A stretch of 64,000 nt of DNA, from NCBI GenBank assembly GCA_039621445.1, contig CP154954.1, positions 40,727,572-40,791,571 on the forward strand, given 5' to 3'. Positions 2,031-64,000 of this stretch are shown here, one piece after another. The first letter of the stretch is position 1; each line of letters begins with the position of its first letter. A model generated the notes under the pieces. That model was not told the DNA's origin. It saw only the letters and a list, made by a program, of their open reading frames with translations, and ran no database searches. The stretch comes from Euglena gracilis. Taxonomy: Eukaryota. Position numbers and translations under genes: made by a program.

Positions 2031-2572
2031 GACTTCTGGGGCCGTTGGGGAAGGGGGTCGGTTGGGAGTCACACCGGACCAGTGGCGGGGCAAACCTCCG
2101 AATGCGCAGGCTGTCATTTGGGCCGGCGTTTGGGGGGTTGACGCGCTGGTGCATGTCATTCGCCTCTCCCGACGTCCGCCGTGGAAACTGACTAGGGTCT
2201 GCGATTCTGTGCCCCGCACACACTGAGCTCTGCTGCACCGCAAATCCCCCTGAACCTTCGCTAGTGGGCATACCCACTGCCTTCATGCACAGCATGCACG
2301 CTATCAATGGAATTAATATTTGCCCGTCCATTTCGGACGTGGTACTCCACCCCCAGCTGTTGCTGCCTCCCGTGCGCATGCCAGCATCCAAGAAACCTGG
2401 CGGGTCAGACCCGCCCCGGGTGGTCATTCCCCACAGTGCGGAAGCGAAGTGGCCTCCAAGGGTGCAGTTTCCTCTTCACCCCCCCATTTTGCCCGTCAGG
2501 TCCGCCACTGCCAACAGAGGCGTCAGCGCCAGTGTAACCCCCCCCCCAAATAACCTGGCAGGGCCCTTGCTC

Positions 2573-3009
2573 CAGGGTTTGATATAAGGAGGGCATACAT
2601 GGTTTAGGTGGGGGGTGTCCCCCCCCCCTCCTGGCCCGCAGGGGGGGGTCCGGACCACCCCCCCCCCACCCACCACCTGCCAGGGGGGTCCGGACCGACC
2701 CTCGGGGGGGTTCCCGAGACCCCCCCCCCCAAAAAGGGTCAATTTTTTCCTCCGGCGCTTCGCACGGAAAATTTTTTTGCATTTTTGGCACATTTTTGCC
2801 CAAAAAGTGCCCAAAGTGGCACTTTTGGTCGATTTGGGGGGTCAAAAATTTTCGGCCCGGCGCTTCGCGCCGGGCCGAAATTCAGCCACCCTGACCGCGC
2901 ACCTGTTTAGGTGGGGGGGGGGTGTCCCCCCCCACCCCCCCCCCTCCTGGCCCGCCGGGGGGGGGGGGGTCCGGACCACCCCCCCCACCTGTCCTTATAT
3001 CGAACCCTG
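2573..3009. mobile_element. hAT-like MITE, family shared with 33075-33189, nested in an older element (about 2530-3216)
   Basis: TIR CAGGGTTTGATATAAGG / CCTTATATCGAACCCTG; TSD CCTTGCTC / CCTTGCTT. Confidence 0.88.
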
Positions 3010-3967
3010 CCTTGCTTCTGGACGTGGCCAAATAACTTGGCAGGGGGAGGAGGGGCAAAAAAGGTGGTTCCAGTCACTTGGCACCCCCCTTTTGGCAAAG
3101 TTCATTTACGAGGCTGAAAAAAGGGCCCAAATAACCTGGCAGGGGGGGGGCAGGGCCAAAAGTTGGTTCCAATGACCTGGAACCCTGCCACGTTATTTAT
3201 TTGGCGGGGTTGCACATATTTCTTCGCATCGCATTGCTCTCAACCCGCGGGGCCGGAACCAGCGTCAGCATTGGGGAGGGGAGCAGCCCCGTGGGCCGCC
3301 TCCCTGACCTGAACTCCTTTCCCTCGGAACATCCCAGGGGGCCTGGCCGACCGGGGGTCGAGGGCGAGAGTGGCTCGGTGGGCAGAGGGCAGAGCCTGGT
3401 CCACAAACTGCAACGTCTGCCCCACTGCTGCACCCCCTCCCTGGGCCACCACAGGGCCGCGGCCCAACCCCATCCACCTTTTCCAAGGGTTTCCAAGACT
3501 ACTGGGTGTGCTTTATTGTTTGCACGGCTGCCCTTCCTCTGCACAGGTATCGAACTGGCATATAGGAGCAGAGGAGTGAACGACAGGGTCGGCCTTTTTA
3601 TTCGGGTGTTGAGATACACCAGACGACCCAGTCACCGGCCTCCTGCTGGCAAGGGGGCACACACAGTCGTTTTCTTCTTTGCGCTGTTTGCACCTGTCGA
3701 TTTCTGTGAAAATTTGCTCTTTCGTTTTTCTTTTGCATTTTTTTGTTTCACCTTTTGCTTTTTTGCGTTGTTTTTTTTCCCCGAGGTCCATATCCCCCCC
3801 CCCTGATCGGTGGGACCCACAAAGGCACCATCCTGGGATTGAAGGTTTGCCCCGCGGACCCATCTCCTCCCCGGACGTTGTTGGCGTTGCATTTGCCCCC
3901 CCCCCCCCGACTCCATTCCGCATAAAAGCCCGCCCTGGGGCGGCCTTTGCCTCGGGGCCCTCCTCCA

Positions 3968-24723
<20,756 letters not shown>

Positions 24724-27700
24724 TGGCTCCTCCCCGCACTTCAACAAAATTTCTCTCCCCTTCCCTCCTCCCCTGTCTTTGTGTGCATGAATGGAGGGTG
24801 CCGTACAACCCTCCAGATTGCGGCTGGCCACCATCCTCGCAAAAACTCCTGTTTTGACTCTGTGCTGTGTGGTTTTTACTGAACATGTACTCGCACATTG
24901 CAGTGCCGTTGTGCTCCAATGTTGTGGCTGTGGGTGTGGATGTTTGTGTGTGTGTGTGTTGTTTGGGTGTGTGGGTGTGTGTCTGTGTGTCTGTGTGTCT
25001 GTGTGGGTGTGGGTGCAGGGTGGCCTAGCATGCTGATGGTCATGTGACGGCGATCTATATCCTCCCCTTGAGTGTTTTTTTAAAGTTGTGTAAGCACCCT
25101 GTGGAGGTTTTTGAGGTCGGTCACAAAAGGGCTGCATTTTCGCACAACAAGCAAATGTGATAGTTAGAAACGGACTGTTGGAGAACTGTGGAAATTGTGG
25201 GTGGAGAACCAGTCAAGTTCCATGGCGGGTGAGCCACATCACCCATTCGCGTTGAGCCTCTGGGACAGACACATAGTAGCAAAAAGCAAAGTCCATTTGC
25301 GCACGTGGCCCACTTGCACAATCACGCAAAAAGGCCACTTCAAAACCAACCAACAGCTTCCAATCCCAGACTCCTTGGAGCTAAAAAAAAATTGATGCAG
25401 AATTGTGGTGCTCCCTCTCCTATGTTGCCCTGTGACGCTGGACCCCCCCTTGAATATTGCTCTGTTCGTTGAATGGTCCATTTGCATTTGCACAGTTGCG
25501 CAAATGATCACAAGAATGGTTCATTTGCACATTTGTGCAAGGGGATTAAAATATTCTTTCTTTTGGAGCCTTTAAAAAAGCTTTAATAAGTCGCTGACTT
25601 CTGACTCAAGGGTTTCCCAAAGTGGAGGTGTTGCGCAGCATGTGTCCCCAAAAATTTTGTCTGGGCATTGCGCTACATCCCCCTGAACGCCGGAGTTTTA
25701 CTAAGTGAATAAATCCAACTATTCGCAGCAATAAATCCACTGTGCTTCATTTCTGGACCGGAGGAGCTGGGGGTGAATGGAAATCCTTTTTTTTCCAAGG
25801 ATGCATTTAAGTAATGTTTATTTTGATGTTATAGGGTACAAAATTTTCCCACAGACTCAATTGGTGATGCCTGCATGAGGGGGGAATTGATAACTTCAAT
25901 TTTCCCACAATTTCCCGCAATTTTGTGCAATTTCCCTAAATTTCCTCAATTTTCCGCAGTTTTTTCCCGCTATTTTTCCACATAAACCTGAAAATGAAGG
26001 CAAAATGATGTGCGGCCATTCCTTGAACGTTTTACCAGGGAACCCAAAGTGCTTTTTTTTTGCTGGTTTGCTTCTTGCCAAAATTTCCCATATTTTGGCA
26101 ACATTTTGCAGCTTCTTGGCTTTTTTTTTTAAAAAAAAAACCCCGACCAGATTTTTTTTACCTAAATCCTTCGTCAATTTTTTGTCATTTTGGATTTTCA
26201 GCCCAAATTCCTTACTTCTGAAATCAGTGCATTCCCAAAATTGCAAAAAATCATGTTTTTGGTTGTTTTTTTTGTTCGAAAGAGTGTGAATACCAGTTCA
26301 AAAATACACACCAATGTTGCAAAATGGCAAAAAATGTGAATTTTTTCTAGGGTGTGCACATTCCCAAAACCGCAATTTCCGCAACTTTTCTGCAATTTTT
26401 CTGCAATTTTCCCCAAGACCTGCGATACAAATCCCCCCCATTGTACCTGAATGCTGGCCCAGAAGGCTTTTGTCACAATCCATTTTTTTGAAAATGAAAT
26501 TCAATGTGTTAAAATTTTCACACAATTGTGCAAACCCATCGTCTGAATGGACCCCTTGCACAGTTGTGCAAATCGTCCCAGCAAAATCCCAGGTGGATGA
26601 GGCGTTGGAAGGTCCCCAGCACACTCGTCTGATCTCTGAGTGGATTGTGATTTGGATCTCGAGCAGAAACGACGTTCGTAAAACGTCTATTTTTTTCTGG
26701 TTTGATTATCTTTTGACACTGATCAAAAAGCCTCCTCACAAACTCAGGATTCATCGGAAAGGATTCTTAGAACGGAGCTTTTATGCGTGTGCCAAACAAT
26801 ACGTTTTTTTTGCAGGCATCAGCTTCATCCCTCACAGAACTGCTCTGAGTGGTGTTTGCTTTGATGACTCAAAAACCCTTCTTCTATCAGCAGAGTTCCC
26901 CCCCCCCAATCGCAGCAAACAACGCCCTGCTGTCAGACGCCTAGGTCGGTCCGCAGTTTTATGTGAAAAAATAATTCAGCCTGCTTTTCAGAGCTCTGCA
27001 GTTTCGTTTTATCATATTTTTTCTTCAGGACTGATCTCTGCTGTGAACTAATACACAAATGGATCAGCAATGATGGGGACATTTTCTGCATTGTGGTGAT
27101 TTAAGGGGAATCGAACCACGTGAGGGTTATTATTTAGGCAAACTTTTCAACCTCAATATATGACCCTCACAGCAATTTACGATTTCCTCTGGACCCAATT
27201 TCCCCCACAATTCTGGGCCTTGGCTGCTTCGCTGCTTCGTACCACAAAAACTGATCACGGGAATCCTGGTCAGTGAACGGGAGGGGGCCCCCTAAATTTA
27301 CTCCTAACGGCCTAAATCCTGACCCTAACCCAAACCCTGTTCCTGTTCCTGACCTTTTCCCTATTAAGAACAGGTGAAGAAGTGTCCCTGGTTGACTGAA
27401 AGGGTCCGGACCCCTTCACCCTCCGCCTCACAGGGCAAAACTTTTCCTTCGCACTGCACTGTGAATTTAATTTTTGGTCCAATCCCAGAACGGTGTAGGG
27501 CTGTTTTGGCTGGGGTTCTCACCCTAAGAAAATAATGGAAATTTGACAAATGTTCTTTCTTTCTTCCTCACTCTGAAAATGGCGGCCCATTCTGAATGAA
27601 AATGGCGACCCCACATACTTGTTGAAACAACTTTGCAGGCTGTCAGATATTGTCTGTAGCTTTTTTGTGCCAGGTTTGTATGTGTGTGTTTTCAATCCAC

Positions 27701-27949
27701 AACTGGCAGCCTTGAGTGCGGAAACTCTTCCAGAACGTGCAAATTTATTTATTCTGTGGCATTTTTTCCTGCAGTTTTTGCAGTCCAGGCTTTTGCCTGC
27801 CGATGTGCCTCTTTCCTTCACCCCCTTTCAACCCACTTTTGGGGGGTTTGGGGGGTACACCCCCCCCCCCGCCCAAAAACCTCGAAGGCACACACATTGC
27901 GGAACCCCCACACCACCATGCTCGCGCTTCGGGGAACGGCCGGTGCCTC

Positions 27950-27968
27950 ATCCGCCTCTTCTTTCCAG
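27950..27968 (+). promoter_or_regulatory. Putative spliced-leader trans-splice acceptor
   Basis: Pyrimidine tract TCCGCCTCTTCTTTCCAG ending 9 nt before the ATG at 27978; could instead be a 5' UTR cis intron acceptor. Confidence 0.5.
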
Positions 27969-27977
27969 GGCCACGCC

Positions 27978-30900
27978 ATGGCTGAACCACAGAAGGAGCC
28001 GCGGGAGTTCCTCATCGCCGCTGGGACCTGGGCATTGCCAAATGGGTCAGGGGTGCCCGCGGTGGCATTCATCTCACCGCGGTGGCATTCATCTCATTCG
28101 GTTCGCCTGCAGTGGATTTCTGAATCCGGAGCAGAACTTTGAATTTTGACATTCCGTTCAAAAAAGGCACCAAAAATTGGCTCAGCCAGCCCAGCTGGGC
28201 TGATCTGGACCCAATTTTTTTCATATGACACCTGGCTGGGAGCCAGACCTCCATTTAGTGTGTATCACCCAAATATTTTTACGTATCACATGGATCACAG
28301 CCTAAAAATTAATGTATCACAGATGCGTTGTAATACGCACTAAATGGCGGTCTGCTGGGAGCCTCTGGCCGGAAAAAAGGTGCTGGCTGGCTGGGCATCT
28401 GGGGGTAGGTCCCCCAGGACCTTTTCCAGCTGGCTGGACCGGACCCCCGGGTCCTTAAAAAATCCCGTGTTTCTCCTGTGGGCACCAAAACAAGGTTTGT
28501 GGTTCGTTTGCAAACACCAGGAAAGGTGTTGCGGTTCACATTTTTTTTGCAAACCATATTTAACTGATTGTCTGGACTAGCCAGTCATTCTTTCCCAAGA
28601 CTTGGGCTGCTCGGCAAGGGCCAGGCTGGGACGTATGACGGCTGGTTCTCAGGCTGGCTGTGGCAGGTCTGTCCCGCCAGCCATCCTTGGGGTGGGGGGG
28701 GATCAATTTCATCATCGCCATGAACTGGGCGCATTGGCTTCCCCTCTTCCATGGAGCCTGTGGAGCTTGTTGAGCTTCTCACTCAAGGCCAGAAGCTCAG
28801 ATTTCCACAGGAGGCGTTGGAACTCCTCCTCCGTTTTCGATCGCAAACGGATGGCCTGCATTGGCCTCACCCCTCAATCCCTCCGGCACACGAGCATCTG
28901 CTTGCAGCAATCGCATTGCGGGTCTCCCGCCCGAGATCCCCGGGTTCCTGGAAGGGCCGTGGCCAGCGCACCGCCGCCAAATCTGTCGGCTCGGCGGCCA
29001 ACCTTCCTGCGCCGCCCCGCAGCCGGACACCCAGGGGCTGATGGAGCGCTTCGCGGTGACGGACCACGCCGGCCCCGTCACGGCGGTCGCCGTCTGCTCC
29101 ACGTTCCTGCTCTCCGGCGGCGTCGACGAGAACATCCGGTGTGTCCGTCCGTCGTCATGTCGCCATGGCCCCAGCGGAATCCGGGGCCTGAATGGCCACC
29201 ATCCTAGCCATCGCCCCAGGCAAGAAGAGGCAAAAAAAAGTGGTGGCAAAGAGTGCTCAAAATTGAAAATTGCTGAAGGAGACCCAGAAGATTGCCAGGG
29301 GAACGCACAGAAGCACGGCGGAAAGAGCCTTGGCGAAGGTTGGTCTGTGTCGTCGACAGCAGAAGGGTGGAACCATCACAGTATTTGCATGTTTTGTACT
29401 TTAAGTTTGACCCCAAGGCACGTCGAGTCCAGTGGCAGTTGGACGTTGGTGCCGATGAAACAGTATCAAAGCAATTCTAACCAAATCAATCATCCCAACC
29501 TAAAAAAGGGTCGAGGAGCATTTTTTTTTTACGACGGTACACCCTCTGCCACTCACCTCCCGCAGGGTCTACCACGCCAAACTCTTCCGCGGGTTCGGCT
29601 TCCTCGCCCAGCACAAAGGTCCCCCCCCCCCAAACCGTACCATTGAGCACCGTTCCATTCCATGGGCCAAACAGCCTGGCACGTCCCAGCGAGGCGTGTG
29701 CCGGTCGGGTGTCCATCCTCTCGCAGCGACCATCACGTGCATGCGCTTCTCGGGGTCCACGCACCTGGCCAGCGGGGACCGCAGCGGCGTCGTCATCTTC
29801 AGCAAGTGCACCCCGAAGCGCCTGGACGAGCTCGCCACGATGCAAGTGCACAAGTCTGCCCCTGGTGTCGCAACCTGACGACCGCGAAGGAGAATTGACC
29901 AAGGGGAAAAGAAAGGCCAACCGGACAGCCCCAGACAGACGTATGGGAGAACCATTTGCAATAGCAGAGTGGAGTGAACTGAAGTTATGATTCGAAACAA
30001 AGACACAACAGATGCAACAAACCTTTCCCAGCATGTTAGATCATGCTGCCGCGTTCCCCGCTGCCCAAGTTCAACCGCTCTTCATTCGCCCGTCTGTCCA
30101 TCCTCGGCCGTGCCCACCATCTCTGTGCCAGCGTGGTGCGGACGCTTTGCCGTTGCTCCTGCCAGCGGGGCGGTCAACGACTGCGACCTCTACCCGCGGG
30201 ACCCGCTGCTCGTCCTGTCCGTCGGGGCGGACCACCTCCTCAAGGTCACCAACTTCGGCAGCCAGCGCACCGTCGACTCCCGCAAGTTCGCCGGTGCGTC
30301 GCCCCTGCCATCCCCCACCCGCCCCTCTACCCCTCTGCCCCTCTGCCCCCAAGCCCAAAGAAATGGTCTCTGACCGGGGGGGGGATTCTGTGAGAAAGAA
30401 AAGCGTGTGAGTTTGGTGTGAACCCCAAATCATTTTTGTCCGCCGTGGTATTTTTGGATATTTTTGCACTTTCGATTTTTTGAAGACCCGGTTCAACCCT
30501 GGGTCGGGCCGAGCTCCATCCCAGGACCCCAAGGGGGGGGGGTCAGCCAGCAGCCTTTTTTCCAGCCAGCAGCCAAATTGTGTGAGCCCCCAGCGCTGTT
30601 AAGCAGCCCCAGGGGGGCGACACTGGCATGGTCCGTGTGGGTTTGCCCTGACGAAGACCAGGGCCCTACCGTACCTCGGTGCCTCAGTGCCTCGATGCCT
30701 CGCCCGGCAGGTGAGCCGCTCTACTGCCGGTACTCGCTGAGTGCGAAGACCTACTGTGTGGGATTCGAACGCAAGGTCGCCGTCTACGATGCGAAGGTGC
30801 CCCCCCTCCCTGCCCGGCCCCGACGCCGGCCCTGCAAGTGCGGGAGACGTCCCCGGCCCATCAATTGGGAAGTGGAGGGGCAGGCCGGGAGATGCCCAAG

Positions 30901-33900
30901 TCCCCCCGCCAAAGTACGCAACACCCGGTGAAGCGGAACCGGCAAAGTGCAATTCCATTGAAAGCCTTTGTGGGGCATCGTTCTCACCACAATCTGCCTC
31001 CCTTCTTGATCATTTGATCCAATTGTCAGAAAATTCTGATCTCACTTACCCTCTCCCCACTCCCAGATTCGCGCAGAACCCCCAATCGCAGAGTACGTCT
31101 CAAAGGAGCTCATCCACTCGTTATCTTATATTGACGTGTGCCATTGTTGCATAACCATATGATTCGCATGTATTTATGTGTATTTTTTGTGTTTTGTTCG
31201 TTTTGTTTTTATTCAGCTCGTTTTGAACTGCCACAAATTCTGAGTCCTGAAGGCATTATTTTTTCTATTGTTATAAAATCCCTCTTTACCTCAACATTGT
31301 CACCTGAGTATGGCTGGATATGTTTTTTTCTGCAGCCTTTAACTACTGGGCCCCCCCAGGGGGTGAGGGCCCAATGGTTGAATAATGGGGGGGAGTCATT
31401 CTCTTAAACACCAGCCAGTGGGGGTTTTGATGATATTTTTCGATTTTTTCCTTGTTGTTTTTTCGGAGTCGAGTTAGTGTTATGATTATTGTTAAGAAAG
31501 GGATTATGGCCAGGTCAGAATCAGGAGGTAAGGCCAAATTCGGGCCTGAATTCGGGCCTGAATTAGGCCCAATTTTAGCTTAAATTGCTATAAAAAAAAA
31601 GCAGGCCTAAAAACCAAACCCCACCCAACTTCAAACCCTGACCCTAACCCCATCCATTTCAATTACCCCAAACCCCAATCCTATTCCGAGGCACACTGCA
31701 CTCCACTTTTGACCGGGCCACCTCCCGCGGACATGGTGAAAGCGCAGTCAAATTTGGGTCGGGGCACACCTCTTAAACGCAGAGGGGTCCGAACCCCCCT
31801 CGTTTAACTGCTTGGGGGGGGGGGCAGTCAAACGAGGTATATAGGAACTGGAGGGATTTTAATGCGTAACTCCCCCCGGGGGGTGTTAAAGGCTGGCGGG
31901 TTTTTTAAAAAAAATATGGCATGTATTGTTTTTTTAGTGTACGTAATATGTTTAGATGTTCTTGAAATGTCACCTCATCCAATATGTGAATGATAAATTA
32001 TCAATCATCTTCATTGCATGATGCATTAAATTTCACATTTACACTTTGCTGACAGATTTGCAAATGTTCAACAACCTTTTCCAGTGCTTCTCTTGAGAAG
32101 TTTTCACTGTATCGTGTGAGGAGCTTTCCACGGACCTGCTTCATTGTACTGTAGCACCTTCAACTGAGCTCTTCAAAGATCCAGGTGACTGGTTTCACGC
32201 ATCAACCCAGTTGTTTGATTAAAATTTTGTTGCAGGCGCATGGAAAATGTCAGGGGTGGTTGCGAACGTTTTTGTCAGGACCCCTGGGCGGGGGATTGTC
32301 TCCTGACAAATTGGGGTTCACGGGCGATTGATTCACCAATTGTCGGTCTATGCAATCGCAGAGGGATTACATGGTGCGTTCAACCAACTGATACGGGAGG
32401 GCTCGGGGTGACCGAGACTAACACTGCGGGGGGTATTTCCAACGTCCAGATTTTCTCGATGAGATTCTTCCATTCGGATCCGCGGGGGTTTTTTCCTGTG
32501 CAGCGCCATAGTGAGGGTTGGGTCCCCGTTGAAGTGGGGGGTACCGGTCCGCCGGGCAGCCCGGTCACCACCGCCGTGGGCGTTGCAGGACGCCATGATT
32601 GCCATCGGCTGCGACAACAAGGAGGTCCGCATCATCGACTCGCAGCGGGGCCACGTGCTCTGCACCCACGCCCACCACCTGAACCGGTGTGCGCCGCCGC
32701 AAGGGGACGGGGGGCCCTAGCAGCCCTTTGGTGACGACCCCCAGTCAGGCTTCTGCTTAAGGGATTGCAGTACCCCCCCCCCCCCCGGGGGGGGCTGGAC
32801 TGCAGCTAGTCCAAATTTGGCTAGTGGGATTTCTAGCAGACCCCCCCGGCGTGCAGCGCCGGATTAAAATTTTTTTTCCAGTTGGGGAGACCCCTGGACC
32901 CCCCCCCCCGGGGGTCTAGCTAGTCCATTTTTTTCCAGCGTCTAGCCAATTGCCTAGCCAGTACCCCCCCCCCGGGTCCTTAAGCAAAAACCTGCCCCCA
33001 GTAGAAAGCGAGGGTTCTGCAGGGCGGGGTCGGCATGGAAACAAGCGTAACTTTCAGAAATGGAGAGCTGGGAGCAGGGTTTGATATAAGGAGGGCGTAC
33101 ATGGTCTAGGTGGGGGGGTGTCCCCCCCCCCTCCTGGCCCGCAGGGGGGGTCCGGACCACCCCCCCACCTGTCCTTATATCAAACCCTGGCTGGGAGTCC
33201 GACCCTCCCACCCCCGTCCCCCCCCACACCCCTTCAGGGTGAAGGCGGTGGCCAGCGGGTACAACGGGGACCGCACGTACACCATCGCCTCCGTCGACTC
33301 CGACGGACGGTGTGTACCGCTGCTGTGGGCGGCGATGGGCATTGCTGTTTCCGGGTGGCTAGTCGGGATCTCCGACTGTGTCCCCACCCCCCAGTGCGGA
33401 GGGATGGAATGGACGTTCCCGCCCACCTCTTCCCCTTCCTCTGGGCTGAGGAGCCCTGCAGACCCCCCCCCCCGGCCCAGGCCAGCCGGTGGCAAACTTT
33501 GAGGGCCCACCCCCCTCACCCTCCAAGGCTCACCGTGGCGAAGCTCCAGCGCGAGGCCGCCGCTCCGGAGGGGCCAGTGGAAGCGGCCGGGACAGACGCG
33601 CCGCCGCCGCCGGCGGCGAAGAAGCGCCGGAAGGGGAAGGCTGCGCCGGAGGTGTCGCCCTCCCCCACGCTCGCCACCTCCCTCTCTGTGTTGGCCCGCA
33701 TTTGGTGAGGGTTGGCATACCACTGGTGTGAGAGAGGGCGGAGGGCTCACACGTTCCTGGGGCACTCATTTCACAGGCGGAGGCCACCCCTGCGGAGGCA
33801 TCGGCTGGGGCCTGGCAGCGTGACCTCAAGGGGGTCTTTGTGCCGTACGCCAGCGACGTCTCGGCCCTCATCGAGGAGGCGTACCGGTCTGGGGCATCCA

Positions 33901-34068
33901 GGTGTGTTGGCATCCCCCGGCACTGTGGGACACCTTGGGCAGCACAAGGGGGTGGGCAACGGCCCGAGGGTGGCAGGTTTGGCGGGGTGGGGGGGTTGTA
34001 AGGGATGGACGGTTGTAGGTGGGATGGGTGATATGGTGGTTACGCATTCGCTGATGTGCTTTTCAAAT

Positions 34069-34163
<95 letters not shown>

Positions 34164-37078: not shown

Positions 37079-38277
37079 ATTTGGATTTGGATTTGGTATG
37101 CCTCGCACGCAACGCCCGCGGTCAGCATTCAAGGCCGAAACCCCAAAAGCTGCCGCGGGGCGGACCCGAGGCCCGGGAAGCAGGAGAGAGTGTCGGAGAA
37201 GGAGGCGAGTCGGGACGGCCGCCGCGCAGAATGCCCGCAGGACAGGAAGCGGTGGGCGAGGTCGGAGAAACATCGAAGAGGCAGGTGCCTGCATAGGAAC
37301 TGGGGAAACAGAAGGAGAAAAAGGAGAAAGGAAAGAGAAAAAGAAGGGGGGGGTAGAAACCAAAACGGGGGGAAAAAAACAGAAGAAAAGAAAAGAAAAG
37401 AAAACAGTTCAAGGACAGTGGCTGCTCCGTGGAGAGGATCAGAATAGACAGCTACACACTGGGTAGTCATGATAAACTGCAAGGCAACGGGATTCCCTAG
37501 GACGCTATGCCAGAACGATGCTGCGTGACATCAAGACACAGCATGCCGGTGTGACGGTGGTGGCCACTGGAGAGCGGGAGAGCTAACAGGCAAAGGAGCT
37601 AAACCAGGCTATGATAGGTCCCAAAAGTCTAAAGGTGTGCAGGGGAGCGGTGACCAAGCAGAGTGAGCAAACTGAGCAAGGCACAGATCACAGGGTCCCC
37701 AGGGGGCTCTTCAGGCTGACGCGTCCCCAGGGCTCAGGTGCGAGGTTTCAACAGAGAAGATGGGGGAAGCGGGATTTGAGACAGGAACCTACAGGCCCAC
37801 AGTGCGAGAGAGTGGGGAGGGGGACCGGAATAAAACAAAACGAAAGCGAACCAAGGCAGAAATAGCACGGTAAGTGAAAAGACCCAAATGGACAGACAAA
37901 TAAGCAGAACAACAACGACACACCCATACACCAATTAGAAAGGAAAAAAAACAACAACAAACAAACAAACAGAGGCACCAGAATGAGCTAAACCCTGTTA
38001 GGATTGGGTACCGGCGGCCGCAGGAGACAACAGGGGCGGCAGGTTGGCGTGGGTGGCCAACGAGGCCCAGGCCATCGTGGCGGTGATATTTGTATCAAGG
38101 GGACAGACCAGGGTTGGGAGCGGGGGGAGGGGGGTGATTCCATGCCTGCAAAGAACCAGGATGCGATCCAACACTGTCAAACGGGTAGAGAACAGTCGCT
38201 TCTGGGGTAAAGAAGAAAGAAGAGAGGGAAATGAAACAAGCAAAAGAAACTCAGTGCAAGGAGGCAAAATAAACAAA

Positions 38278-38360
<83 letters not shown>

Positions 38361-38636
38361 ACACATAAATGAATAATCAGTAAATAAATAAATTAGTAAA
38401 TAAAGAAATAAATAAGGAAATAAATAAATAAAAAATAAATAAATAGATAAATAAACAAACAAACAAATAAAAAAAATAAAATAAATAAGATAAATAAATA
38501 AATAAATAAATAAATACAAATAAATGCATAAAGTTAACAAAATAAAACTAAATAAAATAAACTAAAATAAAAATAAATAAATAAATAAATAAACAAAACA
38601 GACTGACAAATTGGAGTCCCCACACGTGCACACACA

Positions 38637-48789: not shown

Positions 48790-51725
48790 GGGCCCCCATA
48801 CCTGGGGTATGGGGGTGGTATGGGGGTGGTATGGGGAGATATGGGGGGGGTATGGGGGGTATGGGGGTGGTATGGGGTATGGGGGGTTTGGGGGGTTTTT
48901 TGGGGGGGGTATGGTGGGATAGTGTTTGGGGATATTGTTGATGTGGTTGGCTGAAAAAGGGAGATCCTGCAATCCCTCACCCCCCGGGCCACTGGAAAAA
49001 TTTCATATATCGCGCTATTTGTCCGCAAAATAACTTCGGAGACAAACATGAGGTTTATTTTTTTTGCCGGGGGGGGGCGGGGGGGGGGGGGCGGGAGCCC
49101 CCCCCCCGGCACTCGAACAGTTTCATACGTCGCGCGATTTGCCCACAAAAAAAAGTCGGTAGACAAAGATGAGGCTATTTTTGTTGCCGGGGGGGGGGGG
49201 GGGGGGGGGAGCCCCCCCCCCCCCGGGCACTGGAACAGTTTCATACGTCGTGCGATTTGCCCACAAAAAAAGTCGGTAGACAAAGATGAGGTTATTTTTG
49301 TTGCCGGGGGGGGGGGGGGTCCGGGGGGGGGGGCGGGCGGGAGCCCCCCCCCCCCCTGGGCACTCGAACAGTTTCATACATCGCGCGGTCGAAAAATGCT
49401 CATTTTTGGCTCAAAAACAGGTTTTCCGGGTCTGGGGGGCCAAAAACCATGGTTTCGGACAAAAAATTTTTTCGCATTTTTTCGTCTTTTTTTGCTCCGT
49501 TTTGGACCCAAACACCGAAAAAATCTCAAATTCGGCGCAAAACAAGTTTTCCGGGTGCGGGGGAAACATTTTTTCGGGCAAAAAAAATTTTGGGGGTATG
49601 GGGGGGGGTATGGGGGGGGGTCGCTGAGCTCTTATCCCTTTATGGGTAAGAGCGAAGCTTACCACTGGGGGAAAACCCCTCCCCCCCCCACCCCCCCCCC
49701 TCGGGGCCACCTCGGGAACCGGCGGATTATCACCATGATCCCGGCCCCGTTCCCGAAATTTTTTTTTTCAGTCGCGAGCGACTGGATTCCTAGTTTCCGA
49801 ATCACCTGGGTTTGACCCCCAACTCCCCGCCAGGCCCGAGTTATTCACGCGCGAAGGGGTCCAAACTGGGTAGGATTGGCCAACCCCCCCCCCCCTTTGG
49901 ACTCTGCCATTTCGGCCAAAAAATGTCAATTTTCAAAATATCTTCAAAATGAAGCAAAATCAAAGGAAATGTCCGGCGACCTAATTTGAAGCCCTTGGAA
50001 CGCCCCATCTGCCGGTATTTTGATTTCCCCGCAACTCCCCGCCTGGCCCGAGATACGGCCGTTTTCGGCCCGGATGGCCGTTTTGTACACTTTTTCCACT
50101 GTCCGACTTAGCCGTTTTCAGCCAAAATTCGGCCAAAAATCAATAGTTTCAAAATTTTTCCAAAATGAAGCAAAATCAAAAGAAATGTCCGGAGACCTAA
50201 ATTGAAGCCCTTGGAACACTCCATCTACCGGTATTTTGATTTCCCCACAACTGTTCGCGTATCCCGAGATACGGCTGTTTTTCAGCCGATTCTGGCCATT
50301 TTGTACACTTTTTCCACTGGTGGACTTAGCCGTTTTCGGCCAAAAAAAGGCGAAAAATATCGAAAATTTTTTTTTACCCAAAACCATGCTTCTTGGCCTC
50401 CCGGACCCGGAAAAGGGTTTTCGAGCCGAAAATTTTTTTCGACCATCATGGCCATCATGGCCATCATGACCCGTGATGGCCATGATGCGCATCATGACCC
50501 ATGATGGCCATCATGACCCTGATGGGCCATGATGCCCATCATGACCCATGATGGCCATCATGACCCATGATGCCAATCATGGGTCATGATGCCCATCATG
50601 ACCCATGATGCCCATCATGACCCATGATGGCCATCATGACCCATGATGGCCATCATGACCCATGATGGCCATCATGACCCATGATGGCCATCATGACCCA
50701 TGATGGCCATCATGACCCATGATGGCCATTATGACCCATGATGGCCATCATGACCCATGCCGCCCATTATGACCCATGATGGCCATCAGGACCCATGATG
50801 CCATCATGGACCCATGATGGCCATCATGACCGATGATGGCAATCATGACCAATGATGGCCATCATGACCCATGATGGCCATAATGACCCATGATGGCCAT
50901 CATGACCCATGATGGCCATCATGACCCATGATGGCCATCATGACCCATGATGCCCATCATGACCCATGATGCCCATCATGACCCATGATGCCCATCATGA
51001 CCGAGGATGGCCATCATGACCAATGATGGGCATCATGGGTCAAAAAAGTCGAAAAAAAATCGAAATAATTTTTTTGCCCGAAACGATGTTTTTGGGCCTC
51101 CCAGACCCGGAAAAACTGTTTCTGAGCCGAATATGAGTGTTTTTCGACCCTCCAGCGCCCCGTTTTGGGCCGCCAACCAATTGACTTTGGGCCAAAACCG
51201 GGTCAAAAAAGTCGAAAAAAATCGAAAAAATTTTTTTTGCCCGAAACGATGTTTTGGCCTCGCGGACGCGGAAAAACTGCTTTGATCCGAAAACGAGCGT
51301 TTTTCGCCGCCGGGCGCCGGCCGGGCCGCCCGCCCCCCCGCCGGGGTCAAACCCCGGGCCGCCGGGCCGCCGGCCAAAAAATCGAAAAAAACCGCCCCGC
51401 CGTTTTTGGCCCCGCCGGACCCGGGCCGCCCGCCGGCCAGAGCCCGGGCGGCCGACCGCCGCCGCCCCCCGGGCCGCCGACCCAGTGACTTTGGGTCGCC
51501 CGGGTCAAAAGTCGAAAAATCGAATCGAAAATTTTTTTTTTTTTTTGCCTCGGACCATGATTTTTTTTTGGCCGGATCCTAGGGGTAACGGACGTAAGAG
51601 GACCGCCGATACCGACCGCGGGAAAGGGGTGGGGGGGGGGTGGGATATGAATGTCATGGGGGTTTAAAGAACTATAAAACCTGGTATTATGGGGGTATGG
51701 GGTGGTGATGGGGGATGGGGCTTTG
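48790..51725. repeat. Composite repeat element with internal direct and inverted duplications; partial sibling at about 19060-19530
   Basis: (GGGGGTAT)n ends; roughly 120-bp triplication at 48980-49390; roughly 215-bp duplication at 49940-50370; 49390-49520 is the reverse complement of about 51050-51200; boundaries uncertain. Confidence 0.6.
50443..51041. repeat. 19-bp tandem satellite of self-complementary units (CCATCATGACCCATGATGG), about 30 copies
   Basis: Directly visible; each unit is an 8-bp stem with a 3-nt loop. Confidence 0.95.
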
Positions 51726-63436: not shown

Positions 63437-64000
63437 TACGAGGGTGCCTCCCATGACCAGGGAACAGAGCACAGTTTTTTGAGGACCCGGGGGGATCCAG
63501 CCATCTGGCTGGAAAAAAGGTGCTGGCCGGACCACCCCTCTGAGGGTGGGTTTAACCGGCTGCCAGCCTGAACCTGGATGGCACCCGAAAACAGGCAAAA
63601 AAAGCTCAAATCCAGCTTGAGTTTTTTTCCAGCCAAAACTTTGAGGTGAACCCCAAAACTTTCAAAACGGACATCTGCTGTCATTTTTGACCCATTTTTT
63701 TTAGAAAGCTTTTGGCGCTTTATGCCAGTTTTTTTTGATCCAGCCCAGCTTCACCAGGCTGTGAGAACTTTATTTCCACTCGACCCCACTCCCCGGAGAG
63801 AGGGGTCCGCAGCCCAGATGGGAGCTGCTGGCTGGAAAAAGGCCCTGGCTGGCTGAACCCCCCGTCCCCTCCCGGGTGGGGTGGGGCCCGGCTTAATGAA
63901 TTCCCTGCCTGTGGCCATGGGGAGCGAGGAGAAGTGGAGGTGTTCAGCTTCAACGATGTTGAGTGAGACATTCGGGGCCACAAACCTGGTGGAGAAACTG

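Follow-up and report, generated by a model that had tools for sequence, protein, structure and literature searches.

The first intron (intron 1) of a Euglena gracilis WD40-repeat gene whose mRNA receives a spliced leader by trans-splicing is probably a nonconventional intron that derives from an inserted element and is removed nonconventionally; we give this reading a probability of about 0.7. The intron lies on the forward strand of the window, that is, of the whole 64-kb stretch of DNA analyzed here, and the parts of the intron and of its gene described below are on this strand. It is a real intron, since RNA reads of four runs join position 28019 to position 28625.

Intron 1 and its host gene

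The AG acceptor for trans-splicing of the spliced leader is located at 27967-27968, just before the first base of the mRNA body (27969), and the start codon ATG occupies 27978-27980. Before 27968, reads display a loose end, ATTTTTTTTC (24 reads in run X21 and 28 in X22), which we take to be the end of the euglenid spliced leader. The gene itself may be PAK1IP1/MAK11. Its single exons gave only sub-threshold WD40-type matches in Pfam, and the comparison of one exon with the PDB returned a designed WD40 protein (E = 7.7e-4), while a homologue search with a single 41-residue exon, limited to longer proteins, gave no match. Exon 1 (27969-28019), delimited by RNA read depth, the RNA joint and the gene model, can extend up to 28027 depending on the register in which intron 1 is cut. 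By the same token, exon 2 starts anywhere from 28625 to 28633, and the rest of it (28633-28666) as well as intron 2 (28667-29022) were placed by RNA reads and the gene model. Intron 2 is the first of ten GT-AG introns, which served as an internal control set and are the only other introns seen in the gene by RNA reads (10/10 spliceosomal GT-AG).

We used RNA data from three raw runs (X21, X22 and X24) and a contig from a fourth run (X15). The joint from 28019 to 28625, where 605 nt are skipped and 8 nt fit either side, was observed in 35 reads of X21, 44 of X22 and 7 of X24, and also in one X15 contig with a depth of 175. Intron 1 is precisely absent from the mature mRNA in the four runs aligned (4/4), and no read depth continues from exon 1 into 28028-28089. 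In the gene model, the joined frame over exons 1 and 2 encodes IAAGTYDG. No back-joined reads of the kind that a circle or a lariat would give were listed in the RNA runs, whose libraries are probably unsuited to detect them. Reads from the interior of the intron cluster at about 28280-28465 and differ from the window at 28325 and 28332, where the difference is either fixed or split; such reads could derive from pre-mRNA, from the excised intron or from further copies of the element nested in intron 1 that is described below.

The intron measures 605 nt in every register. Two copies of the 8-bp direct repeat GCTGGGAC, the sole forward ones in the 64-kb window, are situated at 28020-28027 and at 28625-28632 and have the form of a target-site duplication. 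Between the two copies lies a 597-nt insert (28028-28624) with imperfect terminal inverted repeats at both ends. It starts with CTGGGCATTGCC (28028-28039) and finishes with GGCAAGGGCCAG (28613-28624), the reverse complement of its end being CTGGCCCTTGCC, so that ten of the 12 nucleotides of the inverted repeat match, starting with CTG...CAG. A preliminary description of this DNA had reported a perfect duplication flanking a CTG...CAG inverted-repeat insert, and the figures obtained here (8/8 for the repeat, 10/12 for the inverted repeat) agree with it. The insert also contains a perfect 20-nt tandem duplication (28057-28096). An Rfam search with intron 1 returned a single match, to a miRNA model, which was far below the threshold (22 bits for 81) and was rejected.

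Elements with 8-bp duplications in the window

We scanned the window for inverted ends starting with C[AT]G and flanked by an exact 8-bp repeat, and obtained five non-low-complexity elements where 0.17 were expected. When the C-N-G requirement was dropped, microsatellites and tandem arrays dominated the output, and we did not use that scan. In the histogram of flank lengths, 8 is the sole peak (5 observed, 0.13 expected), with none at 7 and none at 9-12. Besides the insert of intron 1, the four other elements of the window display exact 8-bp duplications and CAG...CTG ends; one of them is nested in intron 1 and two are inside a GT-AG intron. The nested element (28244-28354, or 28236-28362 with its two duplication copies) is MITE-like and 111 nt long, with ends CAGACC...GGTCTG, 25-nt arms that are 88% complementary and a duplication of its own, CTGGGAGC. 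It shares with the element at 17676 the end CAGR-N4-CATTTAGTG, which has five matches for 0.11 expected. The family of the element at 33075 has a second copy of 437 nt at 2573-3009, with a different duplication. In addition, reads of diverse upstream sequence stop exactly at 32746, where another element begins. Within a few kilobases of intron 1 there are multicopy elements of this same architecture, outside coding sequence.

The presence of these sister elements in the same window gives good support to a transposon-type origin of the insert, and the fact that some of them are multicopy supports an origin that is MITE-like and hAT-style. Elements of the hAT superfamily produce 8-bp duplications and have inverted repeats of 5-27 bp, and the ends of Mar from Drosophila willistoni start with CAG. 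The insert resembles hAT-superfamily MITEs in its 8-bp target-site duplication, perfect over 8/8 positions, its short imperfect terminal inverted repeats, its sub-kilobase size and the absence of any obvious coding capacity. Like Mar, four of the five window elements start with CAG, whereas the element of intron 1 starts with CTG. CTGGGA is common to three of the six duplications, which points to a target preference; this GCTGGGA-like motif would differ from the hAT target consensus. A Pfam scan of ten open reading frames of at least 278 aa, taken from the 32 of at least 230 aa, detected no domain and no transposase. These ten are not strictly the longest, as one of 280 aa was taken and one of 290 aa, spanning an exon of the host gene and the following intron, was omitted. 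Our literature search returned no paper on euglenid MITE families with 8-bp duplications; supplements of the cited papers may hold distributions of sliding distances that would show how unusual 8 nt is.

Another origin for the 8-bp repeat would be a scar of double-strand-break repair or of filler DNA capture rather than transposition. Milanowski 2016 raised this possibility for intron 4 of gapC from E. agilis ACOI 323, a nonconventional intron of recent gain whose direct repeat is also 8 nt long. It would also suit the outer 597-nt element, of which the 64-kb window contains no second full copy. When metagenome contigs were scanned with the first 20 nt of this element, only nine loci came out, and we read them as chance matches and not as copies, since they match over 20-21 nt only; the element is therefore no more than a candidate repeat family. 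Against a repair scar speak a length of specifically 8 in five independent elements that all have inverted ends starting with C[AT]G, the elements present in several copies with different flanks, and the target preference suggested by CTGGGA. We regard this origin as improbable.

Two registers of one intron

The direct repeat allows nine cuts, from 28020/28624 through 28028/28632, which all yield the same mRNA. In this survey, offset 0 gives GC...AG ends, offset 5 fits the nonconventional rule, with CTG at +4 to +6 and CAG at -8 to -6, and the other seven of the nine offsets fit neither rule. This upholds what the preliminary description had stated, namely that the cut 28025/28629 obeys the +4/-6 rule, that sliding to 28020/28624 produces spliceosomal-type GC...CAG ends, and that both cuts give the same mRNA encoding IAAGTYDG. 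The joint is ambiguous by 8 nt, and the RNA data do not separate the registers.

The noncanonical splicing code of Euglena, 5'-N3CDG-/-CH'GN5-6|R, has been defined genetically by knock-in mutagenesis (Nomura 2025, PMC12501133). It covers the CTG-CAG variant, with a strict 3-nt spacer on one side and a 5-6-nt spacer on the other, and is sufficient for splicing in vivo (same reference). Only one of the nine registers matches N3-CDG/CH'G-N5|R, the offset 5 (28025-28629), which reads GAC-CTG...CAG-GCTGG / G and is the reading that we prefer. At its 5' end, exactly 3 nt, GAC, precede CTG (28025-28030), which belongs to the left terminal inverted repeat; at its 3' end, the CAG of the right terminal inverted repeat (28622-28624) is followed by the 5-nt GCTGG (28625-28629), and the downstream exon opens with a purine, G, at 28630. 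Further agreement with the model of Milanowski comes from the G/C at +7/-9, the purine at intron position +1 and the G-A-C opening of the downstream exon. Two weaker features depart from it, a G being the last base of both the upstream exon and the intron, two positions where 49 of 55 introns have a pyrimidine. We also folded the intron ends alone. With 10 nt from each end linked by U7, the energy was -9.4 kcal/mol vs 0 to -6.4 for the ten GT-AG introns of the gene, and with 20 nt from each end it was -17.3 kcal/mol vs 0 to -11.4; this terminal stem appears in such ends-only folds but not in the minimum-energy fold computed for the full 646-nt region. According to Guminska 2021, as cited in the review PMC11282704, nonconventional introns are released as a full-length circle without a lariat. 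Altogether, a nonconventional removal of intron 1 is likely.

The register 28020-28624 is the only one with GY...AG terminal dinucleotides and lies 5 nt upstream of the nonconventional one. Its AG is that of the right terminal inverted repeat. Beyond these dinucleotides, its splice-site context is weak. The 5' site reads GCTGG where the E. gracilis consensus is GTGTG, and departs from the sequence expected to pair with U1. With a matrix derived from the ten GT-AG introns of the gene, the 5' site scored -9.3 vs 3.2 to 13.1 for these introns, and the 3' site -9.4 vs -5.1 to 10.5; among the GY and AG sites of the window, they rank at the 57th and 47th percentiles, respectively. The tract preceding the AG contains 45% pyrimidine and 25% C vs 55-85% and 30-75% in the ten control introns, and does not amount to a C-rich polypyrimidine tract. 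In addition, about 17% of random 8-mer duplications would yield a GY...AG register for a CTG...CAG element, and therefore no selection is needed to explain the GC-AG ends. Intron 1 falls within the intermediate (C/I) class of Milanowski 2014, defined by conventional junctions at any position allowed by the direct repeat together with a stable structure joining the ends, a class that is descriptive and no proof of dual excision. The GC-AG reading looks like a coincidence of an already published type.

One would wonder, nevertheless, whether the two registers could both be used, the spliceosome cutting at 28020/28624 in part of the transcripts and the nonconventional machinery at 28025/28629 in the others, with the same mRNA as a result. 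Both registers are formally present and cannot be distinguished in the RNA data, the G at +5 of the GC register is the sole prominent position of the published GC-AG logo of E. gracilis, and excision in both ways has been argued to be possible for such introns (Milanowski 2014, 2016). However, the scores of the two sites are at the level of random GY and AG sites of the window, there is no C-rich pyrimidine tract, formal GY...AG ends arise from duplications at the above rate without selection, and hybrid introns, which make up 0.8% of introns, were judged likely to be processed by the nonconventional machinery (Nomura 2025, PMC12501133). The spliceosome probably does not use the GC...AG register, and a dual use of intron 1 is unproven and, in our opinion, unlikely. 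From the proposal of the preliminary description that a transposon-derived intron could pass between the two splicing modes, the transposon-type origin and the two formal readings stand, but the spliceosomal reading comes down to the GC and AG dinucleotides alone. Moreover, the terminal AG lies in the CAG stem triplet, so that AG and stem cannot be mutated separately.

It could also be argued that no splicing takes place at all, the joined RNA being transcribed from an insertion-free allele or paralogue while the copy with the insertion is silent or its transcripts degraded. Indeed, a perfect target-site duplication makes the empty site identical to the spliced product, and two expressed alleles are visible, for instance at 27986, where about half of the reads have C instead of A. 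Yet the window's own base at this position, 34 nt from the joint, is found in about 45% of reads (13 of 31 in X21), and none of these 13 enters the intron. Furthermore, a 186-nt X15 contig covering 28280-28465 with two differences indicates that another data set contains the element as well, and the element fits a code that is sufficient in vivo (Nomura 2025, PMC12501133). We regard the absence of splicing as very improbable. Least plausible of all is an ordinary spliceosomal GC-AG intron with accidental terminal pairing: the ends at offset 0 and the ten spliceosomal neighbours would agree with it, but the site scores and pyrimidine tract are weak, the code would be fitted by chance in about 1% of cases over nine registers (as estimated from base composition), seven more pairs are found in the next nine stem positions, and the terminal fold energy is outside the range of the ten GT-AG introns.

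Proposed origin and meaning of intron 1

We propose that intron 1, as a nonconventional intron, originated when a nonautonomous DNA element of 597 nt, bounded by short terminal inverted repeats, entered the coding sequence at GCTGGGAC, an insertion that would have duplicated these 8 bp. In the pre-mRNA, the ends would pair through CUG at +4 to +6 and CAG at -8 to -6, in a stem extending to 12 positions with two mismatches. The nonconventional machinery would then cut 3 nt upstream of CUG and 5 nt downstream of CAG, before a purine. Along with the element, such a cut would take out one duplication copy and no more, since 3 + 5 = 8, and in this way would restore an uninterrupted reading frame. 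The GC...AG register would be a by-product, its AG coming from the CAG stem triplet and its GC from bases 1 and 2 of the duplicated target.

With the nonconventional introns of euglenids (Nomura 2025, PMC12501133; Milanowski 2014, 2016), intron 1 shares CTG at +4 to +6, CAG at -8 to -6, the 3-nt and 5-nt spacers, an exon starting with a purine, a predicted extended terminal stem and a junction that slides along a direct repeat. It differs from most of them by the minority CTG-CAG variant instead of CAG-CTG, by a direct repeat that is a full and perfect 8 nt, and by a G instead of a pyrimidine at the end of the upstream exon and of the intron. Nonconventional introns that also show GC-AG ends include intron 5 of E. 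gracilis tubA, whose direct repeats create four registers, one of them GC-AG (Milanowski 2014), and intron 9 of hsp90 from E. agilis ACOI 323 (Milanowski 2016). As in tubA intron 5, the GC-AG ends of intron 1 require sliding along the direct repeat and come without a typical polypyrimidine tract. On the other hand, the registers are 5 nt apart here, a distance that is 1 nt for tubA intron 5 and zero for hsp90 intron 9, and unlike in both of them the AG is that of the stem triplet itself. The 8-nt direct repeat at the junctions recalls gapC intron 4, read as a recent gain in Milanowski 2016; unlike in that description, sister elements outside coding sequence are seen here in the window.

A parallel can be drawn with introner elements and MITE-derived spliceosomal introns of Micromonas and others which, according to the review PMC11282704, are insertions of short elements whose duplication helps to define the junctions. 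Intron 1 would similarly have arisen when a short element with inverted ends inserted and duplicated its target site. Introners bring along or recruit GT/GC-AG signals and depend on the spliceosome for their removal, whereas the signals of intron 1 fit the euglenid nonconventional pathway.

A broader hypothesis, which we advance tentatively and consider unlikely, is that the 8-bp duplication of a still-recognisable hAT-like MITE family provides, in two parts, the 3-nt and 5-nt spacers of the code, nonconventional splicing being the excision by the host of the element plus one duplication. As the preferred GCTGGGA-like target starts with GC, formal GC-AG ends 5 bases out of register would then be present from the start in every CTG...CAG insertion, and intron 1 would be a young example with its duplication intact. 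If this were true, the formal GC-AG ends present at birth would offer a built-in entry point for a later capture by the spliceosome.

A route between splicing modes has already been hypothesized in print (Milanowski 2014, 2016; Nomura 2025, PMC12501133), and the dual reading, the conversion of intron type and the MITE origin have all been put forward between 2014 and 2025. We regard intron 1 as a clean further instance of an already known kind; it adds one case to known classes and therefore changes nothing on its own. Nonconventional introns represent a large share of Euglena introns, those that can be read both ways being roughly 1%, and in the literature the origin of nonconventional introns is still called unclear, with MITEs only suggested. 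The value of intron 1 is that of a clean specimen in which the spacers of the code, 3 nt and 5 nt long, are filled exactly by a perfect 8-bp duplication. A genome-wide version of the element scan, looking for the 8-bp peak, shared end families and the GCTGGGA bias, would directly test the suggestion that MITEs gave rise to these introns.

Joint and registers of intron 1

RNA from three raw RNA-seq runs (X21, X22 and X24) and from one run available as contigs (X15) was mapped to positions 25100-34060. A joint from 28019 to 28625, which skips 605 nt and is ambiguous over 8 letters, was observed in 35 reads of X21, 44 of X22 and 7 of X24, as well as in one X15 contig of depth 175. The 605-nt sequence is a genuine intron (intron 1). 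Its 597-nt insert (28028-28624) is enclosed by the 8-bp direct repeat GCTGGGAC (28020-28027 and 28625-28632), which does not occur elsewhere in the window in forward orientation. The insert starts with CTGGGCATTGCC and its end, reverse-complemented, reads CTGGCCCTTGCC, so that the terminal inverted repeat spans 12 nt, 10 of them matching, and begins CTG...CAG. The perfect duplication and inverted ends described from the sequence in the preliminary description are thus both present. A perfect tandem duplication of the 20-nt unit CCGCGGTGGCATTCATCTCA also lies inside the intron (28057-28096).

The 8-bp repeat allows nine cuts, from 28020/28624 to 28028/28632, each of which removes 605 nt and yields the same product. 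When all nine were enumerated, offset 0 (28020/28624) gave GC..AG ends and offset 5 (28025-28629) placed CTG at +4..+6 and CAG at -8..-6, as had been claimed for these two cuts, while the seven remaining offsets satisfied neither rule.

According to the accessible text of Nomura 2025, the nonconventional code, established through knock-in mutagenesis, is 5'-N3CDG-/-CH'GN5-6|R, with a strict 5' spacer, a 3' spacer of 5-6 nt and a next exon beginning with a purine; pairing past the triplets is required and the CTG-CAG variant is functional. The register 28025-28629 matches this code in full (GAC-CTG...CAG-GCTGG|G). With the 55-intron model of Milanowski, in the part available, intron 1 shares G/C at +7/-9, a purine at +1 and a downstream exon starting G-A-C, whereas it has G at the end of both the upstream exon and the intron, where the model has a pyrimidine. 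Folded after Gao et al. 2024 (10 nt + U7 + 10 nt), the intron 1 ends reached -9.4 kcal/mol, against 0 to -6.4 in the gene's ten GT-AG introns; when 20 nt were taken from each side, the values were -17.3 against 0 to -11.4. On the other hand, the terminal stem is absent from the minimum-energy fold of the entire 646-nt region, which counts against end pairing. Altogether, intron 1 is a well-preserved, RNA-confirmed nonconventional intron with a transposon-like build.

The GC-AG register was compared with conventional introns of E. gracilis, which have the 5' consensus GTGTG and carry a C-rich pyrimidine tract. Its 5' site is GCTGG. In the 20 nt upstream of CAG, pyrimidines make up 45% (55-85% in the ten controls) and C alone makes up 25% (30-75% in the controls). 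Rough splice-site matrices, built from these ten GT-AG introns only, gave -9.3 at the 5' site (controls 3.2 to 13.1, leave-one-out) and -9.4 at the 3' site (controls -5.1 to 10.5), and the two sites rank at the 57th (5') and 47th (3') percentile of all plus-strand GY and AG sites in the window. The spliceosome may remove intron 1 in some transcripts, which G at +5, the sole prominent position in the published GC-AG logo, would favour, but the weak scores at both sites and the poor pyrimidine tract argue against it. The proposed dual reading therefore holds on paper, where both registers exist, but, given this weak spliceosomal context, probably not in the cell. Moreover, since the AG belongs to the CAG stem triplet, it is enough for a CTG...CAG element that its duplication begins with GY, and 17% of 8-mers sampled from the window yield some GY..AG register. 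The GC-AG coincidence is cheap: the dinucleotides are present, and little else. As for the idea that the joined RNA may stem from an allele without the insertion, at position 27986, which lies 34 nt from the joint, 13 of 31 X21 reads have the window's base and not one enters intron 1, which argues against it.

The host gene

Reads carry a loose end, ATTTTTTTTC, directly before 27968. We take it to be where the euglenid spliced leader ends, so that a trans-splice acceptor would lie at 27967-27968. The gene has its ATG at 27978, ten more introns, every one GT..AG, were mapped with the same RNA from 28667 to 33776, and the gene extends beyond 33901. WD40-type matches obtained from single exons were sub-threshold only, and no homologue turned up when one exon was used as query; the protein may resemble PAK1IP1/MAK11. 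The spliced-leader end, together with the mixture of intron types and the fit of intron 1 to the nonconventional code, indicates a euglenid nuclear genome.

Intron 6 shows two joints one base apart (30292->30710 and 30293->30711), which reflect either an alignment ambiguity or two acceptor/donor pairs offset by that distance; the latter, if real, would shift the frame. A second base is present in about 1/3 to 2/3 of the RNA reads of all runs at 27986, 29055, 29121, 30751, 31079 and many other exonic positions, suggesting that two alleles, or near-identical paralogues, are expressed. At 33106, 33182 and 28332 all reads differ from the window, in what looks like a strain difference. Long simple repeats lie elsewhere in the window: (TA)45 at 34069-34159, about 80 AAAT units at 38267-38597, and an array of period ~19 nt based on CATGACCCATGA/ATGGCCAT at 50532-50995.

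Elements with 8-bp duplications in the window

The whole window was scanned for exact 8-bp direct repeats around ends starting C-N-G with at least 9 of 12 positions matching. Six matches were found, including one low-complexity G run; in 100 simulations under a second-order Markov model, the mean was 0.17 matches and the highest count was 1. When all CDG-initiated inverted-end pairs were scored for exact repeat length (15 simulations), length 8 was observed 5 times for 0.13 expected, length 7 never (0.47 expected) and lengths 9-12 never; lengths 4, 5 and 6 occurred 13, 9 and 2 times for 6.3, 2.4 and 1.0 expected.

Besides the insert of intron 1 (28028-28624, duplication GCTGGGAC), a MITE-like element of 111 nt is nested in the same intron (28244-28354; 28236-28362 with its perfect 8-bp duplications CTGGGAGC), with ends CAGACC...GGTCTG and 25-nt arms that are 88% complementary. 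This nested element would by itself meet the nonconventional code, if transcribed. Two others, with CAG...CTG ends and perfect 8-bp duplications, lie in GT-AG intron 9 (32687-33237), of which they occupy ~380 of 551 nt: 32746-32994 (32738-33002 with duplications CCCCCAGT) and 33075-33189 (33067-33197 with duplications GCTGGGAG). Reads of unlike upstream sequence (agreement 0.54) end exactly at 32746 and X15 contigs across intron 9 are several times deeper than the gene's exon contig; the intron 9 elements are therefore multicopy. A second copy of the 33075 family, of 437 nt, is found at 2573-3009 (2565-3017 with duplications), with ends CAGGGTTTGATATAAGG...CCTTATATCGAACCCTG and its own 8-bp duplication CCTTGCTC / CCTTGCTT, matching at 7/8 positions. 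The fifth element covers 338 nt at 17676-18013 (17668-18021 with duplications GTGCTGGC) and has in common with the 28244 element the end CAGR-N4-CATTTAGTG, matched 5 times in the window for 0.11 expected. The fifth copy of this end, with 1 mismatch, is solitary (18910-18926).

CTGGGA occurs in 3 of 6 duplications (GCTGGGAC, CTGGGAGC and GCTGGGAG; 28020, 28235 and 33067; P ~4e-8 against random window 8-mers), and duplication copies account for 6 of the window's 9 forward GCTGGGA sites. These sequences suggest a target-site preference. A motif near GGAAAAAAGGTGCTGGC was also noticed at 28371-28387 (right arm of the intron 1 element), 63511-63527, 63819-63855 and 17660-17675, the last being the insertion site of the 17676 element.

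Origin of intron 1 and published precedents

A duplication of 8 bp around short inverted ends is the signature of hAT elements, and the ends of the Mar element begin CAG. The outer 597-nt element occurs only once in the window, a 20-mer scan of metagenomes gave no copy (its 9 matches being due to chance), and no transposase domain was found in 10 ORFs of the window scanned (at least 278 aa, from 32 of at least 230 aa). Judging from its architecture, this element would nonetheless have been mobile. Beside the observed joint, code match, end pairing, weak spliceosomal context and sister elements, we propose that an 8-bp-duplicating transposase inserted the element, that its ends would pair within the pre-mRNA and that the nonconventional machinery would cleave at 28024|28025 and 28629|28630. 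Excision would remove the element and exactly one duplication, since the cut takes 3 nt from the left duplication and 5 nt from the right one, 8 nt in total. In line with the accessible passages of Guminska 2018 and of a review, cleavage would follow the removal of conventional introns and intron 1 would be released as a circle.

The dual reading, the intron-type transition and the MITE origin are all three already published. In the available part of Milanowski 2014, the direct repeats of E. gracilis tubA intron 5 give four positions, one of them GC-AG; this intron has no typical pyrimidine tract and was judged nonconventional, with GC-AG arising 'by chance', and an intermediate-intron transition and a MITE origin are proposed. 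The route between splicing modes suggested for intron 1 thus agrees with a published hypothesis, but spliceosomal use of this intron is improbable with such weak sites. Likewise, the accessible text of Milanowski 2016 describes a nonconventional hsp90 intron with GC-AG ends and a recently gained gapC intron carrying 8-nt direct repeats. In that of Nomura 2025, slidable introns account for 84.4% of all introns and hybrids, likely handled by the nonconventional machinery, for 0.8%, and the origin of nonconventional introns is called unclear. Inverted ends and duplication-like repeats are described in the part consulted of a 2024 review (PMC11282704). In the literature searched (supplements excepted), no account was found of MITE families in euglenids that carry 8-bp duplications and lie outside coding sequence. 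Elements of the same architecture, with an 8-bp duplication and a common target motif, merit a genome-wide follow-up.
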